From the NCBI GenBank assembly GCA_016700115.1, contig CP064999.1, positions 1,346,865 through 1,410,864 of the forward strand: a stretch of DNA of 64,000 nt. Direction: 5' to 3'. Positions 12,155 through 53,892 of the stretch are shown here, in pieces. The notes beneath the pieces were generated by a model that was not told the DNA's origin, did no database searches, and was given only the letters and a program-made list of their open reading frames with translations. Position 1 is the stretch's first letter. Every line of letters begins with the position of its first letter. The translations under genes and the position numbers were made by a program. Source of the DNA: Sphingobacteriales bacterium (lineage in GTDB: Bacteria > Bacteroidota > Bacteroidia > Chitinophagales > UBA2359).

Positions 12155-12688
12155 ATGAAAAAGTTAATGAATTTCGCAGCAGTCGCAATCGCTCTTTTGA
12201 GCAGTTTTTTTGCAACGTCTAACGCTCAGGCACAAACTATCCTTGCCACTCCGAGCCTATCTCCCGAACAAGTGGTGAACTATGTGGTTCAAAACTACAA
12301 CAACGTGTCGTTTTCAATCGCCACCAACGAAACCGCCGATGCCAAAATCATGCCCGTCAGCACTTGGGCAACCGGAAGCATGACCAAAACCAACGCCGCT
12401 TGTAAATCTTTGAAAAGCGCACCCACCAACCGCTACCACACGCAAGCCGACTACACCGATGATTTGTTCGACCAACAAGATCAGGTAGAACTGACCCTTA
12501 AAGGTACAGGCTGTGCCGGCGAGGCTACGTTGAAAAGAGGTGCCACCGTGTTCAACATCAACATTATGGGCGTAATTAAAGGCGCACCCGGCGTTGGCGG
12601 AAAAGACACTTACCTGCTCTATGGCACTTACGGAAACGGTAAAAGCTTCATCACCATCAGTTTGTGGAACTTCATCCCCGTAGGATAA
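12155..12688 (+). CDS. small secreted protein, paralog 2
   Basis: About 95% identical to 542..1075. It has a signal peptide and is followed by a terminator at about 12706..12740. Confidence 0.75.
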   Translation: MKKLMNFAAVAIALLSSFFATSNAQAQTILATPSLSPEQVVNYVVQNYNNVSFSIATNETADAKIMPVSTWATGSMTKTNAACKSLKSAPTNRYHTQADYTDDLFDQQDQVELTLKGTGCAGEATLKRGATVFNINIMGVIKGAPGVGGKDTYLLYGTYGNGKSFITISLWNFIPVG

Positions 12689-12740: not shown

Positions 12741-13250
12741 GGCTGTTTTTGGTTTGGAGAGGTTCCATCGAAACACTTTCTACCGAGGATTTCCACAATC
12801 TATCCTACGATGTGCATCCTTAACTTCAGTTTGCAGAATTTATAGATTAGAAAATTAACTAAAAGAGTTAAAGACTAAATTTTCAATGTTTTCTGTAAGA
12901 GTTCAATTTAACCCTTGAATGTGGTTTGAAAAACAGGTAGTGACGGAACTTGTTCCGTCTGATGTTAATAACGGAACAAGTTCCGTTGCTACCGGTATAA
13001 AACAGATTTAGCCACTCTTTTCTAAAGGAACGACTACGGAAATTTGAATTTATGAAAGCATAAAAGAGGGGGGCGTAAAGTGATATCTATTACCCCTCAA
13101 AAACCACCGTTCAAAATCTTTTTTCAAAAAAACTTCCAACCCACGGTTACGAAATTCCGCCCCGATGTACCAACCTACGAAAACCGAAAAAGCCAATCGT
13201 AAATCGTTGTTTCGACAAGCTCAACAACCAATCATAAATCGTAAATCGTA

Positions 13251-13289
13251 AAATTCCCCCCGGATGTACCAACCTACGAAAACCGAAAG
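13251..13289 (+). promoter_or_regulatory. conserved upstream motif copy
   Basis: Same motif, 79 bp upstream of the ATG at 13368. Confidence 0.3.
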
Positions 13290-13367
13290 AAAGCCAAGAA
13301 AAAACCAAACCAAAAACAAAATCAAAACATAAAATTTTTTAAAAACAAAAAACCAAACCAAAACACC

Positions 13368-13901
13368 ATGAAAAAGTTAATGAATTTCGCAGCAGTCGCT
13401 ATCGCCGTTATCGGCAGTTTTTTTGCAACCAACCACGCTAACGCACAAACCATCCTTGCTTCTCCGAGCCTTACTCCCGAACAAGTGGTAAACTATGTGG
13501 TTCAAAACTACACCGTTGTTCACTTTACCATCGCCTCCAATGAAACAGCCGACAACAAAATTATGCCGGTAAGCACCTGGGCAACAGGCAGCATGGCAAA
13601 AACCAACGCCGCTTGCAAATCGCTCAAAAGCGCAGCAACGAACCGCTACCACACGCAAGCCGACTACGCCGATGATTTGTTCGACCAACAAGATCAGGTA
13701 GAACTGACCCTTAAAGGTACAGGCTGTGCCGGCGAGGCTACGTTGAAAAGAGGTGCTACCGTGTTTAACATCAACATTATGGGCGTAATTAAAGGCGCAC
13801 CCGGCGTTGGCGGAAAAGACACTTACCTGCTCTATGGCACTTACGGAAACGGTAAAAGCTTCATCACCATCAGTTTGTGGAACTTCATCCCCGTAGGATA
13901 A
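13368..13901 (+). CDS. small secreted protein, paralog 3 (N-terminal half more diverged)
   Basis: Signal peptide MKKLMNFAAVAIAVIGSFFATNHANAQ. The C-terminal ~90 aa are identical to paralog 2. A terminator follows at about 13930..13965. Confidence 0.75.
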   Translation: MKKLMNFAAVAIAVIGSFFATNHANAQTILASPSLTPEQVVNYVVQNYTVVHFTIASNETADNKIMPVSTWATGSMAKTNAACKSLKSAATNRYHTQADYADDLFDQQDQVELTLKGTGCAGEATLKRGATVFNINIMGVIKGAPGVGGKDTYLLYGTYGNGKSFITISLWNFIPVG

Positions 13902-13929
13902 TCAAACTCTCAACAAACCTTTTTACTAA

Positions 13930-13965
13930 CAGCCTCCGACAGTTTTTGTCGGGGGCTGTTTTTGT
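13930..13965 (+). terminator. rho-independent terminator
   Basis: Same hairpin followed by T5. Confidence 0.65.
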
Positions 13966-14015
13966 GTTAGCGTTATTCCGGTAAAACAATTTAGTTCAGG
14001 CAGACAAAGCGCCAC

Positions 14016-15302
14016 TCAAACTAATTCAGAATGTAGTGAGGAGGGTTCGGTATCTGCTTCCTGCTGTTGAAGGGCATGATAATATAAAACCGAGCAGTTT
14101 TGCGGTGTAAAAATCTGACGCGACAGCCGCTGAACTTCACCTGCAGTTATTTTATCGTACTTTTCAATTTCCTGGTTGATTCCATTAGCATCTCCCAAAA
14201 CCTCATAAAAGGCCAAGGTAAATGCCTTCATCCACAGGTTGGTTTCTGAGAAAATGATGGAAGATTCCACGCGGTTTACTACTTTTTGTAGTTCTTCAGA
14301 CGGAACAGGTTGGTTAATCAGCGTTTCCAATTCAATCCAAATGGCAGCTTCTGTTTGTTCAAGCTTGATTCCTTTGTTCAATTTGGCTTCTATAATCAAA
14401 GCACCTTCGTCAAACTCTCCGTAACAATGAGTGCTTATAGAGTTGCAAAGTTGTTGTTCTTTGACCAAAGCGCGGTATAATCTTGCAGATGAGCCGGTTG
14501 AAAGCAGGTCATTGACAACATCTGTAGCAGGAAAATCGGGATGAGTGCGGTTGCAGACATGAAAACTCATATACAAAGCATCTAACGGAACATCCGCATT
14601 GACATGAAGGGTTCGTTTTTCGGTTTGGGGAAGTTCTTTGGGCAGATTCCGGTTGTTGGGAACACCGGCGGGAATATCACCAAACCATTTTTCTATTAAA
14701 GGCAGGATAGTTTGGGCCTCAATGCCTCCTGCTATACACAAAATGGCATTGTTGGGGCGGTAATACCGGTAGAAGAATGCTTCGACATCGGCTAATTCAG
14801 CCTGTTCAATATGTTCGGGAATCAAACCTATGACCGGCCATTGGTAAGGATGCCTTTTGTAACTCAAGGCGCGGAGCTTATGCCATACATCACCATAAGG
14901 TTGGTTGAGGCTCGTTTCTTTAAATTCTTCGACTACCACACTTTTCTGAACATCTAACGAAGCCTGACTGAAATTGAGCTGCATCATGCGGTCAGATTCG
15001 ATCCAAAAGGCAGTTTCGATATTTGCAGCTGGCAACTGTACGTAGTAATTTGTCATATCGGGGCTGGTAAATGCATTGCACTCGCCTCCCGCATGGTGAA
15101 TTACTTTGTCGTAATGCGGCACATTGGCCGAACCGCCAAACATCAGATGCTCAAACAGGTGGGCAAATCCCGTTTTGTCGGGTGTTTCATCTCTTGACCC
15201 CACATCATACAAAATATTGACGACTGCCAAAGGAGTGGTCGGGTCTTCATGAATCAGTACGCGCAAACCGTTGGATAGTGTAAACCTCTGAAAACTAATC
15301 AT
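14016..15302 (-). CDS. M16 (pitrilysin/insulinase) family zinc peptidase
   Basis: Inverted zinc motif HLFEHLMF followed by GGxxNAFT. The 428-aa length is typical. Confidence 0.8.
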   Translation of the reverse strand: MISFQRFTLSNGLRVLIHEDPTTPLAVVNILYDVGSRDETPDKTGFAHLFEHLMFGGSANVPHYDKVIHHAGGECNAFTSPDMTNYYVQLPAANIETAFWIESDRMMQLNFSQASLDVQKSVVVEEFKETSLNQPYGDVWHKLRALSYKRHPYQWPVIGLIPEHIEQAELADVEAFFYRYYRPNNAILCIAGGIEAQTILPLIEKWFGDIPAGVPNNRNLPKELPQTEKRTLHVNADVPLDALYMSFHVCNRTHPDFPATDVVNDLLSTGSSARLYRALVKEQQLCNSISTHCYGEFDEGALIIEAKLNKGIKLEQTEAAIWIELETLINQPVPSEELQKVVNRVESSIIFSETNLWMKAFTLAFYEVLGDANGINQEIEKYDKITAGEVQRLSRQIFTPQNCSVLYYHALQQQEADTEPSSLHSELV

Positions 15303-37843: not shown

Positions 37844-40800
37844 TCAAAATTTATCAAGTAAGGTTTCTACAACGGAAGGTAGGAGTCTGAATGAAAGCTT
37901 GTGTTGCCTAAACTTTTTTGCATTACTCACCTCTGTAAAATGCTTAATGGCTTTTTCCTCAATTTCTGTTTCTAACATGATCAGTTTTTCTTTCCAGGTA
38001 GGTTTCCATTCATCATACCAATGCTTCAAACCCAAATCTAACAGACTGATGCGAATAATGTAGTAATGGATATTGGGGTTATTATTAATGTAGTTGAGTT
38101 GAGACGTTTTTACATAAAACGGAACGGTATCTGCTCCTTCTTTTATAGATTTAATAGTGGTTTTAACATCAAAATAGAATGTTCGCTCAGTATAGTCGAA
38201 TAAAATATCATATTCAGGAGTACTTTTTGCTGTATATTCTACCTTAGCCCCTGGATATTGATTTTTTAAATAGGTATATACCAACATTTCTCCAATATAC
38301 CCAATTAAACCATTAGGGGTTGAACGGTCTTCTTTTTCTAAGTATTTCATGATTTCATCCAGGTTTTCATATATTTTTTTCAGCATTTCATCGGATTTGA
38401 TATTTTCCAATAAGCTTTGTGCAGTTTTTTTATCCATGTTTGGTGGAACATCAATATCTCCTTTTCCTATATTGGTGCCAATACCTATACTAGGTATAGT
38501 AGAAGTTTCACCGCTACCTGTAACAATAACAGGATTAGGGGAGTTAGTTTCATCTTGGGGTTTGTAAAACCTGCGTACTAATTTAACCAATACATTTCCA
38601 TCATTGGGGAATAAATCGGTTTCTTTGTCCATTAAAAATTTCACAACATCTTCTTGATGTGGATAGATATAAATATTGTACAGGTCTTTACCGTTTAATC
38701 GTTGGGCATTCCCTTTGTTGTGTACCTGCTCGTATAAAATGGAACTGCCAGCTTGCAAGATGTAGGTAAATGGTATTTCGTTGGTGCTAATGTATATATG
38801 GTAGTCTTTGGCATCTTCTTCTTTCCACTTTTGGTAATGGTGGTTTTCCCACTCATTTTTTTCTGCTTCCTTTTCGGCAAAACTGGTGTTTAGAGTAAGC
38901 TTAGTGCCTAAATGGACTTTTATGTTGTTGGTATAACTGTAGTAGGTGGCATCAATTATAGCATATTGCTTTCGGGCCTTGTCAAGGGCTTCTATCCATA
39001 TCTTTTCGGGGTGGTCAACAAGTTTTTCGTCTATATAAGCAGGGTTTTTGCTTGTATTTCGGAGGTAGATTGTAAGTATTGAAAGACTATCTGGCTTATC
39101 GAGATACATAGCCAATTGGTAATCATTTCCCTTCCTTGTAATATAGTCGGCAAGAAGTTTTTGTAGGGTGTAATAACGATAGCTGTTTCGCTCTATGTTG
39201 TTGTGCCAATCTTGTCGGCTTGACCAAAGCAGGGTATTATCGGCAAAATAGGAGATTGCTTTAAGTTGATTTAAATGAGTTTCATCAGTGTGGTCATTAT
39301 CGCGCAAATGTCGGCGTATGGTTAGTATAACAGATGAAGCAGTATGCAAACCTGCTTGTATTAAAAAGTTGCTTTTATCGTCAATTTTTCCTTCTTTAAG
39401 CCATGTTCTTATATTATCAGGTACTTTTTCGATTTCTAACAATAGTGCTGTATCTGGAGTTTCAATGCAAAGGCGGGGATTGAACCATGTATTAGGCAAT
39501 GGATAATCTGGATAAAATGACAGTTTTTTCTCAAAAACATTGCTCAATACCATTATTTCATTGAGATGAGAAAATTTTTCGATGGAGGGTTTATATGCAT
39601 CTTGGCTTAGCTGTCCACTTAAGCTCTGTGTGTAAGCCCAAATAAAACAAACTTGTTCGCTGTTTGTATAGGTTATAACAGTTTTAAGTTGGTTAGCTAT
39701 TTGGTTTATCGGAAATTTTCTGGTTTCGAATAGCTTATTGTAACGATCGTAGCCTACTCCAGCAGTACTCAACATTTTTTTAACTTTTTCCACAGTTTCA
39801 CCCTCCTCCTGATATTCCGGCAACAAAAGCGAAAGTTTAAACTGTGCGCTTTGTCCTTGAGCATGTTCTACGTACACATTGTTATTATAGATATAGTGCG
39901 ATAAGGGTTTCCCATCAATACGTATTTTTTCTCTGAACTGCTCTACCCAATTATCCTGCGAGAAATGGGAAATAACTTTTGCAGTGAGTACAGGTATGGT
40001 GGTTTGGGATGAGGATATTTCTATGTTTTCTAACCTGCTCAGGTATAATTCCTGAATATCATGGCTCCTTTTTATAATTACTTCAATAAAATCATGAGGC
40101 GCTCCATAAGTATTGATTAGGTCTCTGGCAAAATTGTCATCTTCACGAAGCAGTTGGTCATCGTGCTCATAAATTGGAAGTAATTCTTTTGGCAACAGGT
40201 AGTATTTGGGAGTAATGTTTCCACCTAATTGTTTGTGGAGATAGCTGTTCAACGGCTGATTTTGTGAGTGGTATTGTTTGTTTTTTCCTCGCGAGCTGAT
40301 GGTATATTCTTCATCGGGATTGGGCTGTAAAATGAAAGCACTTAGGAAGCTACTGCCAGATTGGATTTTGTCCAATATCTTGAGTTGAGTGAGTGAAACA
40401 GTAAAACTGTTTACCGTCCAATGGTCAATTATGTCAGCATTTTTTATGTGTAGCAATTCGGCAAACCCGATGCCGGCAAGCAGGGTTATATCAGTAAATT
40501 GGCAAACCTGTAAATCGGTACAGATCTGAATAAAATCGCTCAAATCAGCAAATTCAGATTCTGTAAGCCGAGACATTAACGGATTAAAATATACCTCCCC
40601 CATCGGATGGATTTGCCTGTCTTGGCAACGAATCCATGAGTAATCATTGGGTATAGAGGTTTCATTGGCATTTCGTGCTTTTGCAGTTTGATGCAGTTTG
40701 TTCAAATCGGTTATAACTTTTTCATAACATTGGGTGAAACGAGGCAACACCTGCACGTTCCAGTCTTGCAACAGGTTCTGCCATATTTCGTGGGGTTGCA

Positions 40801-42901
40801 TTAGAAGGCTGTCTAACTCGGGTATATCTTCGGAGGCTTTGAGGCTGTAATTTTCCAGAATACCGCTTGGGGCAATACCGGCACTGTTTTTGATTAGTTT
40901 GGATAAAGGTCTTTTCTGTTCGGAACAATTTTCAAACAACACTAATTTTGTGCGCAAATGAGGCTTGGCTTCCTGTATGTACAATAAAGTTTTGAGGATT
41001 TGGTGCTTGCTATTTCGGGTAAAATTTTTGTCGGGTAAAGAAAGAATATCGCCCAAAAACCATTCATAGTATTTATCAAGTAATTGAAAAAGTTGGTGTA
41101 AATGAGTGGCGTGGAATAGCTCAGCACCGCCATGCACAATGCCAGCTTGGTCTAATACTAAAGCCAGCTTTACAAAAGGCGGGTACAGAAAAACGATAGT
41201 TTCGTGATTTAAAATTTCATCAGGTGTTAATATACTATTATCAGTACAACGAATAAAGGGAAGGTTTTGAATCTTGGGATATTCTTTAGCTTTTTTTTGT
41301 ATTTCCTTTAACAAACTAACATATTCCTTATCAGACAGGGAAAGTAACCATTTTTCTAATCTATTGCGTTCGGCTTTGTTGAGTAATTTTAGTATAGAAA
41401 TGCGTTTAACTTTCAAATGCTCTTCAACTAAATCATAGTAATCTTCCAATGAGGGGTCTAACCAATCCCAATCGGTAATTCCTAATTTTTTGGGTGATAC
41501 TGTAAAAGGAGTATCATTTATACGCGTGTCGTCAGATTTGTCAGCATATCCTTTACTCGTGAGTAAGTTGCAGTTAAGTGTTTGTATCAGGTTTTCAAAA
41601 AAGAGTATGCGTATTTCGTTACCTTTCGGCAAATTAGACGTAACTGTTGCCAATAAGCATTTGGTAAAGGAAAGTAGTTCATCTCTTTGGTTGTTTTTGC
41701 GAAGATTTACAATGTATTCTTGAATACCTTTGCTGATTTCTAGTAGTGCTTTTTTGCTTTGAGGACGGTCTAACTGAATATCTTGACGTGCAGAATCAAT
41801 TTCGTAGGCAGCCGAATGGATAATAAACTTTAGCCCGAAATTAGTTTTTGTAATAGGGAAGAATTGGTAAAAGTTGTAAAGTTGTTGTTGGTTGTTAAGT
41901 GGGTTGTTGAGGTATAAAAGGCGGGTGAGGCAATCTCGTCCATCTCTTTTTACAAAGGGCAGCCCGTTTGCTTCTAAAAAATCTGGCTTTTCAATCTGTT
42001 TGCCATTAATAAAAACTCGTTTTAAATTTTTCAAAAACGCCAAAGAAGAAGCAATACCGATTTGTAGGTTGCCCTCTTCTAAGAGTTGATTAAGTGATTT
42101 GGCATGGCCTTGACCTAAAGGTAGATATAATAAAGTGCCGTTCTGAAAACTAAAGCCGTTAAAATGTTTCCCTCGTTCATTCAAAAAAGTTACACAGTTT
42201 TGTAGTTCTTTCTTTGAAAACAACACAATATTGTTGCCAGCAATAGTACTTCTACTTTCTTCCAAAGTTGCCGGATAGTAAGTGAAAATAGTTTTGGTTA
42301 ATAAGGGAGCATTGCTATTGCAATCTTCGGTAAAGCTTATTTTTTCGCCTCCCCAATTTTTAAATACTTCCCATTTGTTTAAATCGGACCATGAAAATAA
42401 AATGGGCGCTTTGTTTTCGTCAATAATGGCAATTTGTAACTCTTTTTCAGTTGTCTTTATTTCCTCTTTTTGTATTTTTTCCAAGGGTATTAAAAGGTCA
42501 TACATCAGTTTTGAACCTTGGCCATACTTGCCTATACTTTCAGGGTCCTCGTATTTTTCGCTTTTGTTTTTGGCAAGAAAATTTAGCAGCTGCCCTTTGC
42601 GTTCTTTGCTACCAAAGGTATCGGTATAAAAAGGCCTGCCATTGTTGATAACTGCCATTTGGTCTTTATCAAAAACAAAATATATTCTATCGGCTTCTGA
42701 ATCATCAGCATTTTGCAAAAATTCAAAGAAAATCTGTGCATTGGTTTTTATTGCAAAATTAGAAATTGTGCCCACTAATTGATCGACATTAGCCTCTACT
42801 CCGTATAGCTCTTTTAACCACTTATCTTCCGCAGATCCTAATTTATCCGGTAGATATGAGATATAAGATTTCAGATATTGTTCAATATTGCGTACTTTCA
42901 T
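37844..42901 (-). CDS. 1685-aa sacsin/NOV-like protein: N-terminal GHKL (HATPase_c_3-like) ATPase, C-terminal DUF3883-like (PD-(D/E)xK-like) domain; candidate effector of a Zorya-like system
   Basis: Bergerat-fold motifs are present: EFLQNADDSEA (N-box), VINNGRPF (G1) and GKYGQGSKLMY (G2). The C-terminus GYIGEMLVYTYLKNQY...EYDILFDYTERTFYFDVKTTIKS resembles DUF3883. It is the last gene of a tight three-gene operon with low GC. Confidence 0.65.
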   Translation of the reverse strand: MKVRNIEQYLKSYISYLPDKLGSAEDKWLKELYGVEANVDQLVGTISNFAIKTNAQIFFEFLQNADDSEADRIYFVFDKDQMAVINNGRPFYTDTFGSKERKGQLLNFLAKNKSEKYEDPESIGKYGQGSKLMYDLLIPLEKIQKEEIKTTEKELQIAIIDENKAPILFSWSDLNKWEVFKNWGGEKISFTEDCNSNAPLLTKTIFTYYPATLEESRSTIAGNNIVLFSKKELQNCVTFLNERGKHFNGFSFQNGTLLYLPLGQGHAKSLNQLLEEGNLQIGIASSLAFLKNLKRVFINGKQIEKPDFLEANGLPFVKRDGRDCLTRLLYLNNPLNNQQQLYNFYQFFPITKTNFGLKFIIHSAAYEIDSARQDIQLDRPQSKKALLEISKGIQEYIVNLRKNNQRDELLSFTKCLLATVTSNLPKGNEIRILFFENLIQTLNCNLLTSKGYADKSDDTRINDTPFTVSPKKLGITDWDWLDPSLEDYYDLVEEHLKVKRISILKLLNKAERNRLEKWLLSLSDKEYVSLLKEIQKKAKEYPKIQNLPFIRCTDNSILTPDEILNHETIVFLYPPFVKLALVLDQAGIVHGGAELFHATHLHQLFQLLDKYYEWFLGDILSLPDKNFTRNSKHQILKTLLYIQEAKPHLRTKLVLFENCSEQKRPLSKLIKNSAGIAPSGILENYSLKASEDIPELDSLLMQPHEIWQNLLQDWNVQVLPRFTQCYEKVITDLNKLHQTAKARNANETSIPNDYSWIRCQDRQIHPMGEVYFNPLMSRLTESEFADLSDFIQICTDLQVCQFTDITLLAGIGFAELLHIKNADIIDHWTVNSFTVSLTQLKILDKIQSGSSFLSAFILQPNPDEEYTISSRGKNKQYHSQNQPLNSYLHKQLGGNITPKYYLLPKELLPIYEHDDQLLREDDNFARDLINTYGAPHDFIEVIIKRSHDIQELYLSRLENIEISSSQTTIPVLTAKVISHFSQDNWVEQFREKIRIDGKPLSHYIYNNNVYVEHAQGQSAQFKLSLLLPEYQEEGETVEKVKKMLSTAGVGYDRYNKLFETRKFPINQIANQLKTVITYTNSEQVCFIWAYTQSLSGQLSQDAYKPSIEKFSHLNEIMVLSNVFEKKLSFYPDYPLPNTWFNPRLCIETPDTALLLEIEKVPDNIRTWLKEGKIDDKSNFLIQAGLHTASSVILTIRRHLRDNDHTDETHLNQLKAISYFADNTLLWSSRQDWHNNIERNSYRYYTLQKLLADYITRKGNDYQLAMYLDKPDSLSILTIYLRNTSKNPAYIDEKLVDHPEKIWIEALDKARKQYAIIDATYYSYTNNIKVHLGTKLTLNTSFAEKEAEKNEWENHHYQKWKEEDAKDYHIYISTNEIPFTYILQAGSSILYEQVHNKGNAQRLNGKDLYNIYIYPHQEDVVKFLMDKETDLFPNDGNVLVKLVRRFYKPQDETNSPNPVIVTGSGETSTIPSIGIGTNIGKGDIDVPPNMDKKTAQSLLENIKSDEMLKKIYENLDEIMKYLEKEDRSTPNGLIGYIGEMLVYTYLKNQYPGAKVEYTAKSTPEYDILFDYTERTFYFDVKTTIKSIKEGADTVPFYVKTSQLNYINNNPNIHYYIIRISLLDLGLKHWYDEWKPTWKEKLIMLETEIEEKAIKHFTEVSNAKKFRQHKLSFRLLPSVVETLLDKF

Positions 42902-42925
42902 AAAAAAGTATATTTATTAGAATAA

Positions 42926-43594
42926 TTACTTTTTGCGCAGAAGGATTCGAAACTCTACTCGCTTCGATTTGACTGTATCTGGCTTTGATTGTGTTAAGTT
43001 ACCTTTACTGTCTAACATACGTGAAAAAGAATATCCACAGGATATAGAATTCATCTTAATAAATTGCACAAAACTTTTACTAAAATTACCATCATTTTCT
43101 AACTTATTTATTATATATTTCTGCACCTCCAAAGCTCGATTACTAGATAGATTTAGGTTAAAAAGATAACTACCAACTTGGTTTGTATGACCCTCTATTC
43201 GTACTTCGCTGATTTCAAATTTAGCATCTTTTTGTTTGCTTTCTTTATAAAATTTTTGTAACTCGCCATAAAAGATTGGAATAAACACATCTATAGCTTT
43301 TAATATTTTGGGTTGGGGATTGGCATCACCGTCTAAAAACAAAGCACTTTTTACATTATCAGTGGCAAAACGTATGGTAGCATTGTCGGCTACGCTGACC
43401 ATACTTCGAATGCTTGATGATTCTAACTTGTTTTTAAATACAGTTGCCAATTCGTGATATTTCGCTTGTTCCAATTCCGTGTCTCGCTGAAACAGGGCTA
43501 AAGACACGACAATGAATATGACCATAAACCCCGAAAACAAATCGGCAAAACTTATCCAAACATTGTGTTCATCGGGTTGGTTGCGGGTAAACAT
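42926..43594 (-). CDS. MotB/ZorB-like protein: N-terminal TM helix with conserved Asp plus C-terminal OmpA-family peptidoglycan-binding domain
   Basis: WISFADLFSGFMVIFIVVSL matches the MotB plug/TM signature (W..yADlmT.lmaFF.V). EGHTNQVGSYLFNLNLSSNRALEV matches the OmpA motif (GHTD..G....N..LS..RA..V). Confidence 0.7.
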   Translation of the reverse strand: MFTRNQPDEHNVWISFADLFSGFMVIFIVVSLALFQRDTELEQAKYHELATVFKNKLESSSIRSMVSVADNATIRFATDNVKSALFLDGDANPQPKILKAIDVFIPIFYGELQKFYKESKQKDAKFEISEVRIEGHTNQVGSYLFNLNLSSNRALEVQKYIINKLENDGNFSKSFVQFIKMNSISCGYSFSRMLDSKGNLTQSKPDTVKSKRVEFRILLRKK

Positions 43595-43612
43595 GTTGTA
43601 GTAGGGTTTTTA

Positions 43613-44911
43613 TCATTGGTGGTTGGCAGATTGTTGAAGGGTGTGTAACAGACGGTCTATTTTATCGGTCATATTGGCAATGGCATTTGTGCGGTCTTGC
43701 ATTTGCTTCATTTCATCTTCCTGCAATCTCCAATTATCATACAACTGACGGGTATTTTCAAGCAATTCTTCTAATAAGGTAAATTGCTTTTGTAGCTGTT
43801 CTGTTATTGCTGAATTGCTATGACTAGCATTGCTATATTGGTCAACAGCATCTTTAAATTTTTGACTGCTTTCTTCTAATGCTGTTTGGGCACGTTGTTG
43901 TAATTCCGCTATTTTTTCAAATGTTTTACTCAGATTTTCTGTATTGTTTTTCAGGATTTCCCCTATTTTTTCCTGAATATTAGCATCTATAATGCCTAAT
44001 GTATTTTCTAAATTGGTGTAGCTATTTTTTAAATTGTTTATTTGGTTTTCAGAAGTAGTTTTAAATTCTGTAGCTATCTTTTCTTGGAGTTCCAGTGCTG
44101 CAATAGTATTATCTTTAATGCTGTCTCCAAATGTTTTGACAACTGCTTCTACCAGTTCTTTAGATTTTGTTAATTCTTCTGTCATATACACTCTCAAAGT
44201 AGTTGTTAGCTTTACAAACTCATCATTTATTGTCTTAGCTTGCTCTTTGGTTAGACTTAGAGTTTGATCACCCATAATTTTAATATATGCTTCAAGACTT
44301 ACTTTCAAATCATTAATCATTTCTCCCAATTGCTCCCGCATATATTCTCCGGCAGTAGTCATTACCCCTAATAGGTCTTTTAATTTTTGCAGTTGTTCGA
44401 AAGTTGTTTCCTTTATTGTATGACGAACAGACATTAACGCTTCATTTACATCATGACTAAAGTTGCGTAATAATCCATTGTCGGAAATTAATCTTTCTTT
44501 GACATCATGTATTAGCTCATTATTATTTTCTTGTAATTCTACCATATCCCACAAAAGTTGTTGTGGATTTTTTTTCATATACTCTTCATTCAATTCTATC
44601 TGCTCTTCCAAAGTAATCCGGTATTTAATTATGGAACTCCAAATAATACTCGCCAAAATGCCTATAAGAGAAAATAAAAATTTGTTTGACAATTGACGTA
44701 CAATTTCCGATAGATCTCCGCCGAGTTTAAAATCTTTCAGTACCCACCATAAGACCCCGAATGAAAAGAACACGCCTGTTGAAGTACAAAAAGTGGGAAT
44801 ATAACTAACAAGAGTACTCCTTATCGAATGCCTTTTGAAGACTAAATAATAAGGTACAGCAAAACATATAATTATAACAATAGGAGACAAAAACAAAGTG
44901 ATTAAATCCAT
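43613..44911 (-). CDS. membrane protein with 3 N-terminal TM helices and ~330-aa cytoplasmic coiled-coil tail (ZorA-like partner candidate)
   Basis: The hydrophobic segments span 5-25, 37-58 and 77-98, followed by an uninterrupted heptad-rich sequence. It lies 19 bp upstream of the MotB-like gene. Its topology differs from canonical MotA/ExbB. Confidence 0.6.
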   Translation of the reverse strand: MDLITLFLSPIVIIICFAVPYYLVFKRHSIRSTLVSYIPTFCTSTGVFFSFGVLWWVLKDFKLGGDLSEIVRQLSNKFLFSLIGILASIIWSSIIKYRITLEEQIELNEEYMKKNPQQLLWDMVELQENNNELIHDVKERLISDNGLLRNFSHDVNEALMSVRHTIKETTFEQLQKLKDLLGVMTTAGEYMREQLGEMINDLKVSLEAYIKIMGDQTLSLTKEQAKTINDEFVKLTTTLRVYMTEELTKSKELVEAVVKTFGDSIKDNTIAALELQEKIATEFKTTSENQINNLKNSYTNLENTLGIIDANIQEKIGEILKNNTENLSKTFEKIAELQQRAQTALEESSQKFKDAVDQYSNASHSNSAITEQLQKQFTLLEELLENTRQLYDNWRLQEDEMKQMQDRTNAIANMTDKIDRLLHTLQQSANHQ

Positions 44912-45194
44912 GCCAAAAATTTAATTTAGTTGTATCTATCAACTTTAAGTTAAAAAAATCTCACAAGATAACAAAAAGTACTTAACTTTATTTTGTTACT
45001 ATAAAAATAAAATGGCACAAGCCTCAATACTTAAGTATGCACAATTTAGAAAAACTAAACATAAAGCAATTTTTGATTAAATTAACCTGAATTATGATTA
45101 AGTGTAAAATGGTATTAGTGTTTTGTTTTTATTGTAAATTGAAGTGATTTTTAGATTTTCCTTAGGAAGTGTTAAAATCACCTACTGACATTGA

Positions 45195-45480
45195 ACTATT
45201 GTTCCTCTGCATCAAACCATCTAACCTCTGCAATGAACCATCGCACCCTTGCATTGAACCAAATCGCCCCTGAATTGAACCGTTGCATCCCTGCAATGAA
45301 CCATTGCATCCCTGCAATGAACCGTTGTGCCTCGGCATTGAACCATTGCGACTATGTTTAGAGACGTTGTGCCCTTGCATTGAACCATATCGCCCCTGCA
45401 AAGAACTATTGCGCCTCTGCATTGACTGATTGCACCTCTGCAATGAACCAATGTACCCCTGCAATAAACCATTGCACCCC
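45195..45480. repeat. degenerate 21-bp tandem repeat array (~13 units), each unit containing the palindrome TGCAATG-AAC-CATTGCA
   Basis: CCCTGCAATGAACCATTGCAT units lie head-to-tail. The two overlapping ORFs on the minus strand (45162..45464 and 45221..45472) are translation artefacts of the 7-aa periodicity. Confidence 0.85.
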
Positions 45481-45910
45481 TTGTTTTTTGCCCCGAACAG
45501 CGTTTAAATGGGGTAATCAGGCAACTTTTTGTTCATCACGTTCGCAAGTTAAAGGCGGGCAAACAGACGGTAACCAAAAATCCGGTTAATGCAAATTACC
45601 CTGTTATACCTAACCCTAAACAACACAAAATACCCGGATAAATACTTTTTGGAAATAACAACACTTCCAATTCAGATATATGGCAGGTCGGTCATTGGCT
45701 TCATATTGCCGACAACCAACAGTCTGTTTGTTCTTAAAACCTGACCTGAATAGCTCGCCTTCTTGCCTGATAGCAGCAGAAAAAGTAAACCGCCGGGTAA
45801 TTTTACAAAACCGGCAGTTTCAAAAAATTTATCCGGCATTGTAATCCTGCCGTTTGTTTTTTTGCGATGAGTGTGGGTACAGGGGATATTTCCCACCCGT
45901 TAATTTAAAA

Positions 45911-47443
45911 CTATTCCCCTTCTTTATCAAAATTGTACAAACCTTCACCGTCCGAAAATTCTTCGGAGTTTTTGGGAGTAACCTCTTTTTGTTCCTCAAA
46001 CAACTCCATATCACTTTCCTCGATAGGGCTGTAAAAATGATGATGGTTATCGGAAACGCTGTGATGGGCAGGGGTTCCGTCAGAAGGGGGTGTTTCCGAT
46101 TCGGAATTTTCGGAAATATCCTGAGTTTCTGTTTTGTCTTCAACGGTAGTTGTTTCTTCAGATACCTGTTCGGCATTATCTCCGGCAATGGTTTCTTCGT
46201 TGCCCGATTCCTGAGTTGTTGCTATGTCAGGGGCAGGCATGCTGTTCGCGTTTTCCTCATTTTCAAAGTCTTCAAGCACCGGCACAACCGGATTTTCTGA
46301 CGAAGAAACGGCTTCTTTGCTCTCGTCTTTGTTTTGCTTTACCGGCTTTTTGTTTTTTTGGTGATGTTTGTTGCCTTCGGGTTGTTTTACCGGTTCCGGC
46401 TTTTCTTTTTCTTTTGGTTGGACTTTCTCCAATTTTTTCTGTTCCTGCTGCAATTGTCTGTTCAGGTCGTTCAACACCTCCTGCATTTCTTTCAGTTTAG
46501 CTTCATTCGCCTCTAATTGGGTGGTAATCATTTTAATTTTGGCTTCCCGAAGTTGCGCTTCTAATTTGCCATCGGTAGTTTTGAGGCGGTTATGCTGAAA
46601 CTGTAGGTCGTTTCTGTCGTCTCTGATTGTTTTTTCGCTTCTCGCAATAATATCTTTCACCCCTCTAATCCGGTGTTCAATCCGGCGGAGGTTGCCTTTT
46701 TGCCTTTCTTCTTTCACTAAGGTAAAGGCATCATTAAACAGCACCCTCAGTTGTTCGCGTAAAGCTCCGGCAAGTCTTAGCCGGTTGGATTCATCCTGCA
46801 ATCCCTTTAGTTTATCAAAAATGACATTCAGGTTTTGGTTCGGTGAAACAGATTCCATGATTTTCTGAATCCGGGCTTGTATGGTTTCGACGGCTTGTCT
46901 GGCCTCGTGGTTGGCTTCTTTGCGCAGGGATTTCAATATATCAAACGCCTCGTTTATCTTGTCGCGCAACCACCCTGTATGTTCGCGGGTCAGGTCTTTT
47001 TCCTGAAAATAGTTGTTCACCTTGTCCCAAAAGGCTTTGGTGAGTTGCCACATTTCGTTGTCGTATTCGGTCAGAGATTTTACCTGTTCTACAAGCCCGT
47101 CAATTTCCTTGGTCAGTTTCTGGGATAATTTGTTCGACAAAACCCTTACCCGCCATTGGGTTTCGGCAAGTTTGACCAAATCGGTGTTCCGGGTTTTAAC
47201 CTCGTCCGGCAGCAGGTTTTCTTCCATCACCGAGCGTTCGATATAGGTGTGGTTTTCGGGCAGTTGTGTCAAATCAATCTGATCCGTGTTTTCCAATGCC
47301 TTTTTCTCAAACTCGTCTGTGATGGTTTCTTTGGGAAGTGTCCATACATCTATAATATCATCGGCAAGCCGAAGACGGACAATCACCAAACATTCTGCAT
47401 CATTTTCGTTTGCGCCCCAAAAGGCTATTTTATCCTTAATCAT
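45911..47443 (-). CDS. hypothetical coiled-coil protein with acidic C-terminal tail
   Basis: 510-aa ORF with extended heptad regions and a Glu/Asp/Ser-rich C-terminus. No motif was recognised. Confidence 0.5.
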   Translation of the reverse strand: MIKDKIAFWGANENDAECLVIVRLRLADDIIDVWTLPKETITDEFEKKALENTDQIDLTQLPENHTYIERSVMEENLLPDEVKTRNTDLVKLAETQWRVRVLSNKLSQKLTKEIDGLVEQVKSLTEYDNEMWQLTKAFWDKVNNYFQEKDLTREHTGWLRDKINEAFDILKSLRKEANHEARQAVETIQARIQKIMESVSPNQNLNVIFDKLKGLQDESNRLRLAGALREQLRVLFNDAFTLVKEERQKGNLRRIEHRIRGVKDIIARSEKTIRDDRNDLQFQHNRLKTTDGKLEAQLREAKIKMITTQLEANEAKLKEMQEVLNDLNRQLQQEQKKLEKVQPKEKEKPEPVKQPEGNKHHQKNKKPVKQNKDESKEAVSSSENPVVPVLEDFENEENANSMPAPDIATTQESGNEETIAGDNAEQVSEETTTVEDKTETQDISENSESETPPSDGTPAHHSVSDNHHHFYSPIEESDMELFEEQKEVTPKNSEEFSDGEGLYNFDKEGE

Positions 47444-49287: not shown

Positions 49288-49746
49288 ATGGGCAAAAAGT
49301 CATTACAGATACAGCAACTTAACAGTAAAATGCGGGCTTATGCAAGCCTGCAAAAGGTAGCCCCACCGCCTACAGGGTGGATAAAAGCTATCCGTACTGC
49401 ACTTGGAATGAGTATGCAGCAGTTGGGCAACCGCCTTTCCATTACCAAACAAAGTGTGCAGGATGTTGAACGCAGAGAAAAAAACGGCTCCATTACCATC
49501 AAATCCCTTCGGGAAGCGGCTAAGGCTTTGGATATGCAGTTGGTATATGGTTTTGTTCCGGTTGATGGCAGTTTGGAAGAACTGATAGACCGCAAGGCAA
49601 AAGAACTGGCAATACAAATTGTTTTGCGTACCAGCAACACTATGAAACTGGAAGACCAGGAAAATACAAAGCAACGCATTGAAAAAGCAATTCGGGAAAT
49701 GGCAACAACCCTTAAAAACGAAATGCCTAAAACTTTATGGGATTAG
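49288..49746 (+). CDS. mobile mystery protein A (XRE-type HTH, Fic-partner/antitoxin-like)
   Basis: HTH ...ALGMSMQQLGNRLSITKQSVQDVE... and a 10-bp overlap with the downstream Fic gene. The pairing matches TIGR02612/TIGR02613. Confidence 0.6.
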   Translation: MGKKSLQIQQLNSKMRAYASLQKVAPPPTGWIKAIRTALGMSMQQLGNRLSITKQSVQDVERREKNGSITIKSLREAAKALDMQLVYGFVPVDGSLEELIDRKAKELAIQIVLRTSNTMKLEDQENTKQRIEKAIREMATTLKNEMPKTLWD

Positions 49747-50333
49747 ATTTAGAGTACATATACGGGCAAACACCGTTGGATGAAGACGAAAAAGAAGGGT
49801 TGCTAATCCCCACCATTGCTACACGCGGCGAGTTGGACGAGTTTGAACAGCAAAATATTGAACAAGCAGTATTGTGGTCACTCAATCGTTCTTTCAAAGC
49901 AGAAAATGTGTTCACCGAAGAATTTTTGGAAGCAGTGCATAAGCGTATGTTTGGCAACTTATGGGCATGGGCAGGCGAGTTTCGCAAAACGAATAAAAAT
50001 ATTGGAGTTGACAAATGGCAAATTCCTGCTGCGCTATGGACATTGCTTGATGATGTAAAGTTTTGGTATGCCAACGGAATTTACAGTCCCGATGAAATTA
50101 CCATACGCTTTAAGCACCGTTTGGTAAGCATACATTGTTTTCCTAACGGCAACGGCAGGCATAGCCGCCTGATGGCTGATATTGTGATTGAGAAGATTTA
50201 CAAACAGCCGCATTATACATGGGGTGCCGGCAATTTGGTTAAGCAGGGCGACCAACGCAGCAATTACCTCAGTGCCATTAAAGCAGCCGACAGCGGAGAC
50301 ATTAAACCATTGATAAATTTTGCAAGGTCTTAA
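49737..50333 (+). CDS. Fic/Doc family protein (mobile mystery protein B)
   Basis: Fic motif HCFPNGNGRHSRL (HxFx[DN]GNGRxxR). Confidence 0.75.
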   Translation: MGLDLEYIYGQTPLDEDEKEGLLIPTIATRGELDEFEQQNIEQAVLWSLNRSFKAENVFTEEFLEAVHKRMFGNLWAWAGEFRKTNKNIGVDKWQIPAALWTLLDDVKFWYANGIYSPDEITIRFKHRLVSIHCFPNGNGRHSRLMADIVIEKIYKQPHYTWGAGNLVKQGDQRSNYLSAIKAADSGDIKPLINFARS

Positions 50334-51019: not shown

Positions 51020-52541
51020 GGGGGAATGTTCAAAAAAGTGTGTCAACACAAATTACAGAAATAAAAATTTTAATTATGAAAAAGGACAAGAGAGAAAGTA
51101 GATCAGCTTCCCCATTGGAAGACTTTGATTATCCGTCATTTGAAAAGAAGCGATAAAACGCCTCACGTCTGGGGATCGGTTATTAGGCAAAGAAGGCGTA
51201 TTAACGGGTATGGTACAGCGTTTGGTGAATGCAGCTTTATCAGGCGAGATAGACAACCACATCAAGACCGACCGTTCGCAGGGTGTTAGCAATCGCAGGA
51301 ACGGCTATACTTCGAAGACCTTAAACACGGAGTTAGGGGCAGTGCAGATTTCGCCTCCTCGGGACAGGCGTGGCGAGTTCAGTCCGATTATTGTAGGGAA
51401 ATGGGAGCGTGAGTTGGGTACAGGCTTAGAGCAACAGGTTCTGATGATGTATGCTTATGGGAACAGTTATCGGGATATTCAGCTGCAACTTATGGAGCTA
51501 TACGGTGTAGAGTTTGGGGTATCGTGGATAACAGAGATAACAGACCAGGTACATGTGGAGGTGTCATCGTGGCAGCAGCGCGCCTTATTACCCTTTTATG
51601 TGGTGGTCTATTTAGACGGCATTTATTACACAAGTCGGGAAAGTGGTCGGTCAGCTAAGAGAGCTGTTTATTCGGTCTATGGAATAGACGCAGAGGGAAA
51701 TCGATGTATTGGGCATTTACGTTCGCAATACAGAGGGGGCTTCTGAGTGGGGTCTGATTCTGGAAGACTTAAAAAACGAGGTGTTGAAGATGTGCTATTC
51801 TTTTGTATAGACGGGCTTAGCGGTTTAGATGAGGCCATACTTTCGGTTTTTCCTCAATCCTTCGTCCAACGCTGTATTGTCCATATGCTCCGCAGCAGCA
51901 CTAAATTTGTTGCCAGAAAAGATATTAAGCAAGTCAGTGCAGACCTTAAAAAGATATACAATGCTGCCGGCGAACCCGAAGCGAGAGCAGCCTTAGCAGG
52001 TTTTGAGCAAACCTGGGGAAAGAAATATCCCGGTATCGCAAGGGCTTGGGAACAAGAATGGGCAAATTTAATGGTGTTTATGGATTTCGGAGCAAATATC
52101 CGCCGAATGATTTATACGACTAATCCTGTGGAAGGTTTGCACCGGCAAATACGCAAAGTAACGAAAAGCAAAGGTTCATGGGTAAACGACAAGGCTTTAG
52201 TCAAACAAATTTATCTCATCCTGATATATGGGAGAGGCGGGTGGAAAACTAAAGTTACAAATTGGACCTCAGTATCACACGAATTGCGTACCCGCTTCGA
52301 AGACCGTTTTACAAAGCATGTGGATGTTTAACTAACCGATGAGTAGGAAGTAAAGGAATTGAAAACAGCGTTGTTTCCCACATTCCAACAGCCTTTACTA
52401 CTCAAAAAAAAGAAGGGTTTGAGTAGTAGGCTATTGAAATGTGGAAAACTATATAACTAAAGTACTCTTAAATTTAACATGTTAAATCCACTCTTGATTT
52501 TCAAAAATAATCGCTTTTGACACACTTTTTCGAACATTCCC
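51020..52541 (+). mobile_element. IS256-family insertion sequence, degraded
   Basis: Imperfect terminal IRs GGGAATGTTCAAAAAAGTGTGTCAACA and, inverted at the right end, GGGAATGTTCGAAAAAGTGTGTCAAAAGCG. The internal IS256-type transposase is split over at least 3 frames. Confidence 0.65.
51075..52331 (+). pseudogene. IS256-family (Mutator-like) transposase, frameshifted
   Basis: The segments MKKDKRESRSASPLEDFDYPSFEKKR*, LGKEGVLTGMVQRLVNAALSGE...LRSQYRGGF* and then MGSDSG...FCIDGLSGL...VQRCIVHMLR... are collinear with IS256 transposases but lie in different frames. Confidence 0.65.
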
Positions 52542-53034: not shown

Positions 53035-53892
53035 TCACTTTCTTTTCTTAATTTTCTCTATCATTTGTTTGACCTCCGAAACCGGCAGATTTACAATCTT
53101 TGATATAAATTCGGGCGACATGTTTTCTTCAAGACATCTTTCTACCACTCCTTCCTTTTCTTCTAACTTACCCTCTGTCTTGCCCTTCTTTTCTGCTGCT
53201 ATCAATCTCCCCCGTTCATCCTGTTCGGCAATCGAAGCGTTGTCATACGCTATCAGTTCCTCTTTCTTCCAACTATGTTTATCCGCATCTTTATACGCTT
53301 CTACCAGACCTTCGTCATCTGTATTCTCCGGAATAACCTCCAGTTTCTCTGCATTCTTGATAAAAAATATCCACTTATCTGTCAGTGTTTCCATTTCATC
53401 TGCCTTTTTATCAAATTTCCTCAACTCGATAAACGTGAACTGAATATCTTTCAATTTGTGTTCATAGGTCTTTTCGTTCAAAATTAAATGGTTGGACAAA
53501 TATTCGGCACTTTCAAAAAAATCAAAGTCCAATATCCCTATAAAATAGGTCGGTTTCAACAGTGGATATTGTTCACCTCGGTCAATTTGCGTCGAATAGT
53601 CTTTGGATGCGTAGTATTGTACCCTTTTGTCGAACCCGTCAACATCAGCCATTTGCATCTCAATCACAAACTGTCTCACTTTTTTATCTTTTGCCCTTAT
53701 AGCTATGACGGATGCATTTTCTCCTGCTACCCTCGGCAAAAGATACGGGTTGATGATCGTTACCTCTTCTATTCTTTGGTCGCCTTCCAATTTCAGAACG
53801 GCATTTAGAAACGAAATCAGAATGTTGGTCTTTTTCTCGTTGCCGAACATCTTTCTGAAGGCTATATCATTTTTGACATCTACAAATTTCAT
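53035..53892 (-). CDS. Rpn-family recombination-promoting nuclease / PD-(D/E)xK putative transposase (YhgA-like)
   Basis: The N-terminus MKFVDVKNDIAFRKMFGNE...ILISFLNAVL and the central IEMQ motif are hallmarks of the TIGR01784 family. Confidence 0.65.
   Translation of the reverse strand: MKFVDVKNDIAFRKMFGNEKKTNILISFLNAVLKLEGDQRIEEVTIINPYLLPRVAGENASVIAIRAKDKKVRQFVIEMQMADVDGFDKRVQYYASKDYSTQIDRGEQYPLLKPTYFIGILDFDFFESAEYLSNHLILNEKTYEHKLKDIQFTFIELRKFDKKADEMETLTDKWIFFIKNAEKLEVIPENTDDEGLVEAYKDADKHSWKKEELIAYDNASIAEQDERGRLIAAEKKGKTEGKLEEKEGVVERCLEENMSPEFISKIVNLPVSEVKQMIEKIKKRK

Follow-up and report, generated by a model that had tools for sequence, protein, structure and literature searches.

Three types of the defence system Zorya are present in the literature, with the effectors ZorCD, ZorE and ZorFG, and the modular exchange of effectors is already an accepted theme of this system. 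Tiamat is listed as a single-gene system with a PD-(D/E)xK domain, the single-gene status being also that of the PADLOC naming. The locus described here lies in a stretch of 64,000 nucleotides (the window) from a Sphingobacteriales metagenome-assembled genome and is composed of three genes on the minus strand: gene A (ZorA-like; product identical to IPM47_04795), gene B (ZorB-like) and gene C, encoding a giant protein of the TmtA (Tiamat) family. We consider it probable that these genes form an anti-phage operon joining a ZorA/ZorB-type sensor to a TmtA-family effector, and represent a new Zorya subtype, because profile searches, synteny in 17 of 17 loci, co-divergence and the nuclease fold of the C-terminus of the giant all point to this reading. 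The same proposal, a Zorya-like operon of a tailed ZorA-like protein, a ZorB-like OmpA protein and a GHKL/DUF3883 giant, had been made in a first-pass annotation of the sequence and is sustained in its centre. All three open reading frames were found exactly at the coordinates, strand and lengths given there (Table 1), with intergenic gaps of 18 bp (A-B) and 24 bp (B-giant) in place of the 19 and 25 bp reported.

The gene order A, B, giant is conserved in all 17 loci examined from the clade of the giant, down to about 23% identity of the giant, with junctions ranging from -20 to +31 bp between A and B and from -4 to +179 bp between B and the giant, and with stop and start codons which often overlap. 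Giants with 62%, 31%, 29%, 28%, 25%, 23% and 23% identity are each preceded directly, on the same strand, by A-like and B-like genes, the former encoding 398-509 aa and the latter an OmpA protein of 213-248 aa, and the flanks of the linked loci are unrelated to one another. The possibility that the giant always occurs alone in other genomes, raised in the first-pass annotation, is thus answered by its own clade. When one genome per GTDB species was scanned, A and B were upstream in 8/8 loci with a full-length match to the giant, the hosts being Bacteroides thetaiotaomicron, Bacteroidales, Saprospiraceae, Mediterranea and two Bacillota bins, while none of the approximately 70 loci of the same scan which matched only the N-terminal sacsin-type domain carried A or B upstream. 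A metagenome scan with the B alignment added one further triad. No ZorC, D, E, F or G was found beside A and B in the loci whose genes were listed. The family is rare: among 1.84 billion cluster representatives, relatives of B number 11 at E <= 1e-30, rising to 76 when the limit is E <= 1e-10. A tblastn search of the giant against the PLSDB plasmids and the INPHARED phages found nothing. Two triads are in Bacillota bins (L014, Lachnospiraceae; L016, Anaerovoracaceae), with giants clustering with that of B. thetaiotaomicron. The peptidoglycan-anchored inner-membrane ZorB has been described for Gram-negative bacteria, and these two cases could reflect mis-binning or horizontal transfer.

The giant has 61 homologues, and a neighbour-joining tree of 58 giants separates linked from stand-alone members. 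The five stand-alone giants checked (P0036, P0038, P0040, P0046 and P0047), none of which has A and B, belong to a single clade of 21 sequences which includes none of the 16 linked giants, one split dividing the two groups. The stand-alone giants, which carry explicit NOV_C, SACS or HATPase_c_3 matches, score 1100-1345 bits on the TmtA model, against 478-633 bits for the linked clade. The linked clade also has extra segments at about residues 1251-1350 and 1451-1500, the second predicted to be disordered, which are mostly missing from the stand-alone giants and are candidate adaptations to coupling with ZorAB. For the 16 complete triads the mirror-tree distances correlate for giant and B (r = 0.83), giant and A (r = 0.87) and A and B (r = 0.66; Mantel p <= 0.0005 throughout), with the caution, counting against our reading, that such correlations can be inflated by shared phylogeny.

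Gene C encodes a protein of 1685 aa, of which residues 1-1627 match positions 1-1529 of the 1552 of the PADLOC model TmtA (PDLC03970, 4.6e-153); in PADLOC only TmtA models match it. By these matches and its conserved motifs, the giant belongs to the TmtA family over its full length, with a predicted GHKL domain at the N-terminus and a predicted PD-(D/E)xK nuclease at the C-terminus. The three sequence boxes on which the ATPase assignment had been based (EFLQNADDSEA, VINNGRPF and GKYGQGSKLMY) are all present, and E60, Q63, N64, A65, D67, N86, G124, G127, G129 and K131 are kept in 58/58 aligned family members. The N-terminus matches the NCBIfam sacsin N-terminal ATP-binding-like domain (1.4e-9) and Pfam SACS (9e-6), both under the cut-offs, and relatives of the giant match HATPase_c_3. 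Among solved structures the profile of the giant matches only the N-box of sacsin crystal structures, sharing the form ExxQNAxDA. At the other end, the NOV_C/DUF3883 domain of the stand-alone relatives P0035, P0036 and P0041 maps to residues 1538-1619 of the window giant, and E1538, D1565, D/E1578 and K1580 are kept in both linked and stand-alone clades. Between the two end domains are about 1400 residues of unassigned scaffold. The combination of GHKL and DUF3883 was therefore correctly recognised in the first-pass annotation, including the nuclease fold of the C-terminus, but it was overlooked there that a name for this architecture exists, TmtA of Tiamat. Since the giant is a TmtA member, the novelty is in the pairing and not in the protein. 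The likeness to eukaryotic sacsin and, through NOV_C, to NO VEIN (NOV) goes no further than the domains, the giant being bacterial, of another overall architecture and in an operon with a membrane motor.

Gene A encodes a protein of 432 aa whose best PADLOC matches are ZorA2 models (3e-12 for PDLC00635, and 8e-11), with residues 3-294 collinear from the N-terminus with positions 11-303 of PDLC00635; ZorA1 models align only when shifted by about 113 residues, or over the tail. Against solved structures the profile of the A family finds the type I ZorA 8vvn_C (1.1e-12) and the ZorA of E. coli (EcZorA; 8qyh_A, 0.008), from the second transmembrane (TM) helix onward. Profile position 24 corresponds to chain residue 133 of 8vvn_C; TM2, TM3 and the tail are therefore homologous, and the insert between TM1 and TM2 of type I is missing in A. 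In EcZorA three TM helices are accompanied by a membrane-proximal cytoplasmic domain at residues 48-127, a domain absent from A, because its TM1-TM2 spacing is only about 10 residues. In the type II ZorA of S. kujiense the cytoplasmic extension runs from about residue 100 to 378. A has three TM helices followed by a nearly unbroken helical tail of 335 residues and, because type II ZorA has been published with the same layout and a similar start of the tail, A is by homology a compact type II-like ZorA. The three N-terminal TM segments and the long helical tail had been seen correctly in the first-pass annotation, whereas its remark that the topology differs from that of ZorA was mistaken, EcZorA having three TM helices as well and the type II tail also starting at about residue 100. 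Nor is the protein unrelated to stator families, given its matches to ZorA2 and 8vvn_C.

The helices of A aligned to TM2 and TM3 of ZorA, which bear the T147/S184 polar ring, contain the motifs P39-x3-T43-S44-x-G46 and F78-x2-S81-x2-G84, respectively. Over 15 sequences S81 is invariant, G46, F78 and G84 are conserved at 90% or more, and T43 is the majority residue. For the tail, an AlphaFold2 model of the monomer was used for its secondary structure only, as it was built from a nine-sequence alignment and is of low confidence (mean predicted local distance difference test, pLDDT, 46); it gives a near-continuous helix over residues 79-430. The tail contains one proline in 335 residues and its regions align to ZorA tails both in PADLOC and in the solved structures. 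Tail length varies among homologues, which have 398-634 aa in total. The best-conserved parts of A are TM2/TM3 and the tail tip (residues 321-432), and the least conserved is the middle of the tail. The tip of the ZorA tail is required for recruitment of the effector ZorD, and the conserved tip of A fits this published requirement.

Gene B encodes a protein of 222 aa matched over its full length by the PADLOC models ZorB1 (6.4e-28) and ZorB2 (2.1e-26). A profile of five B proteins finds among the solved structures the type II ZorB of S. kujiense (8vvi_A, 1.4e-29), E. coli ZorB (EcZorB; 8qyd_F, 1.8e-16) and Shewanella ZorB (8vvn_B, 2.4e-14), while flagellar MotB and PomB chains follow at 4.6e-7 or worse. 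B is thus not an ordinary OmpA/Pal protein, a possibility the first-pass annotation had left standing. The single TM helix includes the motif WISFADLF, and its D18, invariant in the B alignment, is aligned to Asp26 of EcZorB, a residue which is essential for Zorya defence and whose exchange in D26N abolishes it. Of the MotB-type TM/plug signature read in the first-pass annotation, the motif with the conserved Asp is real, but the plug is not supported: PF13677 gives no match, and the published ZorB is without a MotB-like plug. The OmpA peptidoglycan-binding motif, EGHTNQVGSYLFNLNLSSNRALEV, is indeed present at residues 134-157, and Pfam OmpA scores 31.0 bits (cut-off 27.2), the sole family of those checked to pass its cut-off on B. 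Invariant residues of the B alignment in this domain are Y143, N146, R153 and R212-x-E214-F215-R216, and N146 and R153 are aligned to N152 and R159 of EcZorB, the peptidoglycan-binding residues needed for defence.

Table 1. Coordinates of the three-gene operon, its domains and other features of the window.
Feature	Position	Strand	Evidence and details
Gene A, ZorA-like, 432 aa, compact type II-like	43613..44911	-	PADLOC ZorA2 and ZorA structure matches
A, three TM helices, residues 3-25, 36-58 (or 38-59), 77-97 (or 79-97)	44621..44905	-	AlphaFold2 secondary structure and hydropathy
A, putative cytoplasmic helical tail, residues 98-432, 335 aa	43616..44620	-	AlphaFold2 secondary structure
Gene B, ZorB-like, 222 aa	42926..43594	-	PADLOC ZorB1 and ZorB2
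B, single N-terminal TM helix, residues 13-34, channel Asp D18 (codon 43541-43543)	43493..43558	-	
B, periplasmic OmpA-like peptidoglycan-binding domain, residues ~112-218	42941..43261	-	Pfam OmpA
Gene C, giant, TmtA-like (Tiamat family), 1685 aa	37844..42901	-	PADLOC TmtA
Giant, sacsin-type GHKL (Bergerat-fold) ATP-binding domain, residues ~54-135	42497..42742	-	Sub-cut-off family matches and invariant residues
Giant, C-terminal PD-(D/E)xK nuclease domain (DUF3883/NOV_C-like), residues ~1529-1625, E1538, D1565, D1578-x-K1580	38027..38317	-	
Degenerate 21-bp tandem repeat	45189-45481		14 copies, 69% match, consensus CATTGAACCATTGCGCCCCTG
510-aa open reading frame, coiled-coil middle, acidic low-complexity C-terminus	45911-47443	-	
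HTH_3 and Fic/DOC overlapping gene pair	49288-50333	+	Fic: PADLOC candidate system PDC-S04 3.3e-20; weaker SoFic 4.6e-6
IS256/Mutator-family transposase, split over two adjacent open reading frames	51210-52331	+	
PDDEXK_2 transposase-like gene	53035-53892	-	
Caspase-like protein, 679 aa	28399-30438	-	PADLOC "caspase" model PDLC02987 3.8e-40

The closest relative among the described systems is Zorya type II, with which the operon shares the compact ZorA with three clustered TM helices, no membrane-proximal domain and a tail from about residue 100, a ZorB with channel Asp and OmpA-like peptidoglycan-binding domain (its closest solved match being 8VVI), and the order A, B, effector, the effector being a DNA nuclease in type II and, judged by fold and motif, probably also here. 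It differs in that the type II effector is the HNH nickase ZorE and here is a 1685-aa GHKL and PD-(D/E)xK giant, in that B is too diverged for the NCBIfam ZorB2 equivalog, and in that the published hosts of type II are mainly Escherichia and Campylobacter, whereas the present loci are mostly in Bacteroidota. With type I (ZorABCD) it has in common the homologous ZorAB core (A against 8VVN, B against EcZorB) and the conserved tail tip, which parallels the requirement for ZorD recruitment, but A has no membrane-proximal cytoplasmic domain and there is no ZorC. None of the defined effector sets of Zorya (ZorC with ZorD, ZorE, ZorF with ZorG) is present, the third gene matching TmtA only. From Tiamat, described as a single gene, the locus is set apart by the ZorA/ZorB-like genes preceding the giant throughout its clade and by the lower TmtA scores and extra segments of that clade.

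A further likeness to type I is found in a gut/rumen subclade, in which a gene for an SNF2 helicase of 943-952 aa follows the giant after 6-10 bp (L014, 11051-13882; L015, 10972-13830; L017, 10969-13824; L018, 10963-13821), giving a four-gene version of the operon; L005 (13154-15973) has a similar SNF2 gene 72 bp downstream. The position directly after the giant recalls ZorD, but the helicase matches DrmD of DISARM (about 1e-191 to 1e-195) far better than ZorD (1e-32 to 1e-36), and the window has no SNF2 gene after its giant. As an observation apart, the stand-alone TmtA P0047 (L008) lies beside Tra genes of a conjugative transposon and is followed without gap by a gene (12999-14765) for a 588-aa superfamily 1 helicase (AAA_11/AAA_12, SLFN-g3_helicase). 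A pairing with helicases may be frequent among proteins of the TmtA family.

A and B also resemble the flagellar MotAB, ExbBD and TolQR motors, through the universally conserved Asp in the TM helix of B, the OmpA-like domain and the channel-like TM2/TM3 of A. However, the matches of B to MotB fall short of those to ZorB by about 20 orders of magnitude, the Pfam families MotB_plug and MotA_ExbB do not match, those motors do not have the 335-aa tail of A, and genes for motility or for Ton/Tol functions are absent from the context. An identity of A and B as flagellar stator, ExbBD/TolQR or GldLM was therefore rejected, the ZorB matches being vastly better and the tail of A specific to Zorya.

A mechanism may be proposed, all steps of which are taken over from published work on Zorya types I and II. 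By analogy with the solved ZorAB, A and B would form an ion-driven 5:2 complex in the inner membrane, in which the ZorB dimer would contact peptidoglycan via the OmpA-like domain and the C-termini of ZorA would bundle into a long cytoplasmic helical tail, about 50 nm in length if the 335 residues were fully extended. The giant would take the place of the usual Zorya effectors (ZorCD, ZorE, ZorFG). Perturbation of the envelope by a phage at entry would lead ZorB to engage peptidoglycan, and ion flow past D18 would make ZorA turn or rearrange. The ZorA tail, chiefly its conserved tip, would then recruit or activate the giant at the site of entry, where the incoming DNA might be cut by the PD-(D/E)xK nuclease of the giant, with the GHKL ATPase in control.

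Several observations weigh against this reading. The NCBIfam equivalogs ZorB1 and ZorB2 score only 44.4 and 37.1 bits on B, far under their cut-offs of 400, and because of this distance B is, by its profile matches, a diverged ZorB homologue outside the curated type I and type II groups. Among Pfam families OmpA passes its cut-off, but neither MotA_ExbB (PF01618) nor MotB_plug (PF13677) matches any protein of the window, DUF3883/NOV_C does not match the window giant directly, and SACS remains sub-cut-off. With an unreliable AlphaFold2 model of A, it is homology that suggests the stoichiometry and the architecture of the tail. ATP hydrolysis by sacsin-type GHKL domains is uncertain. The immediate flanks of the operon within the window are housekeeping genes. 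Finally, the stand-alone relatives of TmtA presumably work without ZorAB, and a sensor may not be strictly necessary for the giant.

The last point leads to a reading in which the polarity is reversed and the system acts by abortive infection, the giant being a cytoplasmic sensor and the ZorAB-like channel an effector which depolarises the membrane and kills or arrests the cell. Giants without A and B imply a family which presumably senses infection alone, ZorAB conducts ions, and its essential Asp is conserved in B. We nevertheless regard this as unlikely: the published work on Zorya I and II places ZorAB upstream of nuclease effectors and contains no evidence of membrane depolarisation, and the ZorAB-linked clade retains a nuclease motif for which a pure sensor would have no need. 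About equally improbable is a role other than anti-phage defence, such as the control of incoming conjugative or transforming DNA, the maintenance of mobile elements or a DNA transaction coupled to envelope stress. The position between housekeeping genes would suit such a role, and so would the related A/B modules found in operons of quite another composition, where their partners are kinases, transglutaminase and zinc-ribbon proteins or else AAA+ ATPases; yet all three proteins have their best matches among models of defence systems validated by experiment, the homologous loci are adjoined by defence genes, such as those for restriction and toxin-antitoxin, and low GC content with patchy distribution is typical of defence cargo. 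That a complete single-gene Tiamat lies by chance beside a ZorAB pair which is orphaned or degraded, each acting on its own, might be suggested by the clustering of defence genes and by the call of Tiamat which PADLOC would make on the giant by itself, but is effectively excluded by the 17/17 co-occurrence in fixed order between unrelated flanks with giants down to about 23% identity, by the absence of A and B from all five stand-alone-clade loci and from the roughly 70 N-terminal-domain-only loci, by the co-divergence of the three proteins and by the lack of ZorC-G with A and B in listed loci.

The ZorAB-TmtA operon is more AT-rich than its surroundings, as had been noted, with a GC content of 0.31-0.40 between 38 and 45 kb, while the metG/recG and thiolase genes on its flanks have 0.46-0.49. 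The genes metG and recG are directly on one side, and an orphan open reading frame of 510 aa and the thiolase gene on the opposite side. The operon looks like a small AT-rich insertion, in a window without a dense defence island. The defence island of the first-pass annotation is accordingly weak in the window itself, where metG/recG and thiolase directly flank the operon, but defence genes are common beside the homologous loci, where the defence or mobile genes include HicA, McrBC, HipA, Fic, an SNF2 and Eco57I-like methylase pair, MmeI, GmrSD, type I restriction-modification and IS66. These neighbours support a defence role for the family.

The insertion sequence and Fic elements reported nearby are present in the form of the helix-turn-helix (HTH) and Fic pair, the IS256/Mutator-family transposase, which is split and probably inactivated, and the PDDEXK_2 gene (Table 1). 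The caspase-like gene is about 7 kb from the operon and may be a further defence-related gene. The repeat array reported upstream of gene A also exists and is intergenic; a reading as a CRISPR array was ruled out, since the 21-bp units are head-to-tail and spacers are absent. The orphan 510-aa protein has neither a Pfam nor a PADLOC match and was rejected as a member of the system, being absent from the other triad loci and without family matches. Elsewhere in the window the plus strand encodes three paralogues of 177 aa (542-1075, 12155-12688 and 13368-13901), whose N-termini resemble signal peptides and whose mutual identity is 86-94%. No Rfam family reached its gathering threshold in the whole window. 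A promoter scan, which does not cover Bacteroidota promoters, gave 35 promoter-like sites where 29.8 were expected, and a terminator scan gave 6 terminator-like sites against 6.2 expected.

Distant relatives of A and B are also found in other arrangements. In L111 (3787-14620), and also in L096, L099 and L112-L122, ZorB/ZorA2-like pairs (PADLOC 1e-29 and 8e-15) are present in the reverse order, B then A, within long co-directional operons on gut and rumen metagenome contigs, which include genes for two Ser/Thr kinases (STK_OB, 9e-44), transglutaminase-like and zinc-ribbon proteins, a BACON-domain protein and DUF4407. TmtA and ZorC-G are not present in these operons, which may be another undescribed ZorAB-based system. 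In L123 (6094-10816), L109 (5584-12611) and L126 a ZorA-like (633-799 aa) and a ZorB-like gene are followed by one for an AAA+ ATPase of about 700 aa (Pfam AAA, 1e-25; PADLOC IetA-like, 9e-13), and in L109 a DUF445 gene is upstream of this set.

No description of a pairing of ZorAB with TmtA was found in the literature, including that of 2025-2026, whether as a fourth Zorya type or as a Zorya-like or ZorAB-like system, subscription-only papers being outside the search. Both the sensor module and the effector family are known, and their conserved coupling is the part which we have not found described. Annotation tools probably mislabel these loci, calling the giant as a single-gene Tiamat and leaving A and B uncalled, and such loci, including those of human-gut Bacteroides, may be misdescribed in censuses of defence systems.

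No described mechanism of Tiamat was found in the literature either, and the coupling to the well-studied ZorAB suggests, for the linked TmtA clade, that the trigger is perturbation of the envelope when a phage enters and that the membrane is the site of action. Linked and stand-alone TmtA proteins offer a direct comparison of sensor-dependent and autonomous versions of the same effector. Zorya would gain a structurally unrelated class of effectors, and comparison of tail tips with effectors across the types could show how the ZorA tail signals. In a wider sense, and here we see the chances as evenly balanced, the ZorAB envelope sensor may be a general-purpose module serving more effector sets than those of the three published types: the present operon would represent a fourth type, its motor tail controlling a Tiamat-family ATPase-nuclease, with an SNF2 helicase added in the gut subclade, and in Bacteroidales the A/B family would be wired to at least two further undescribed sets, one with kinases, transglutaminase-like and zinc-ribbon proteins and DUF4407 and the other with an AAA+ ATPase. 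If this is true, the linked and stand-alone TmtA clades constitute a natural experiment on the sensor and effector parts of a giant single-protein system, and could reveal how the ZorA tail talks to unrelated effectors.

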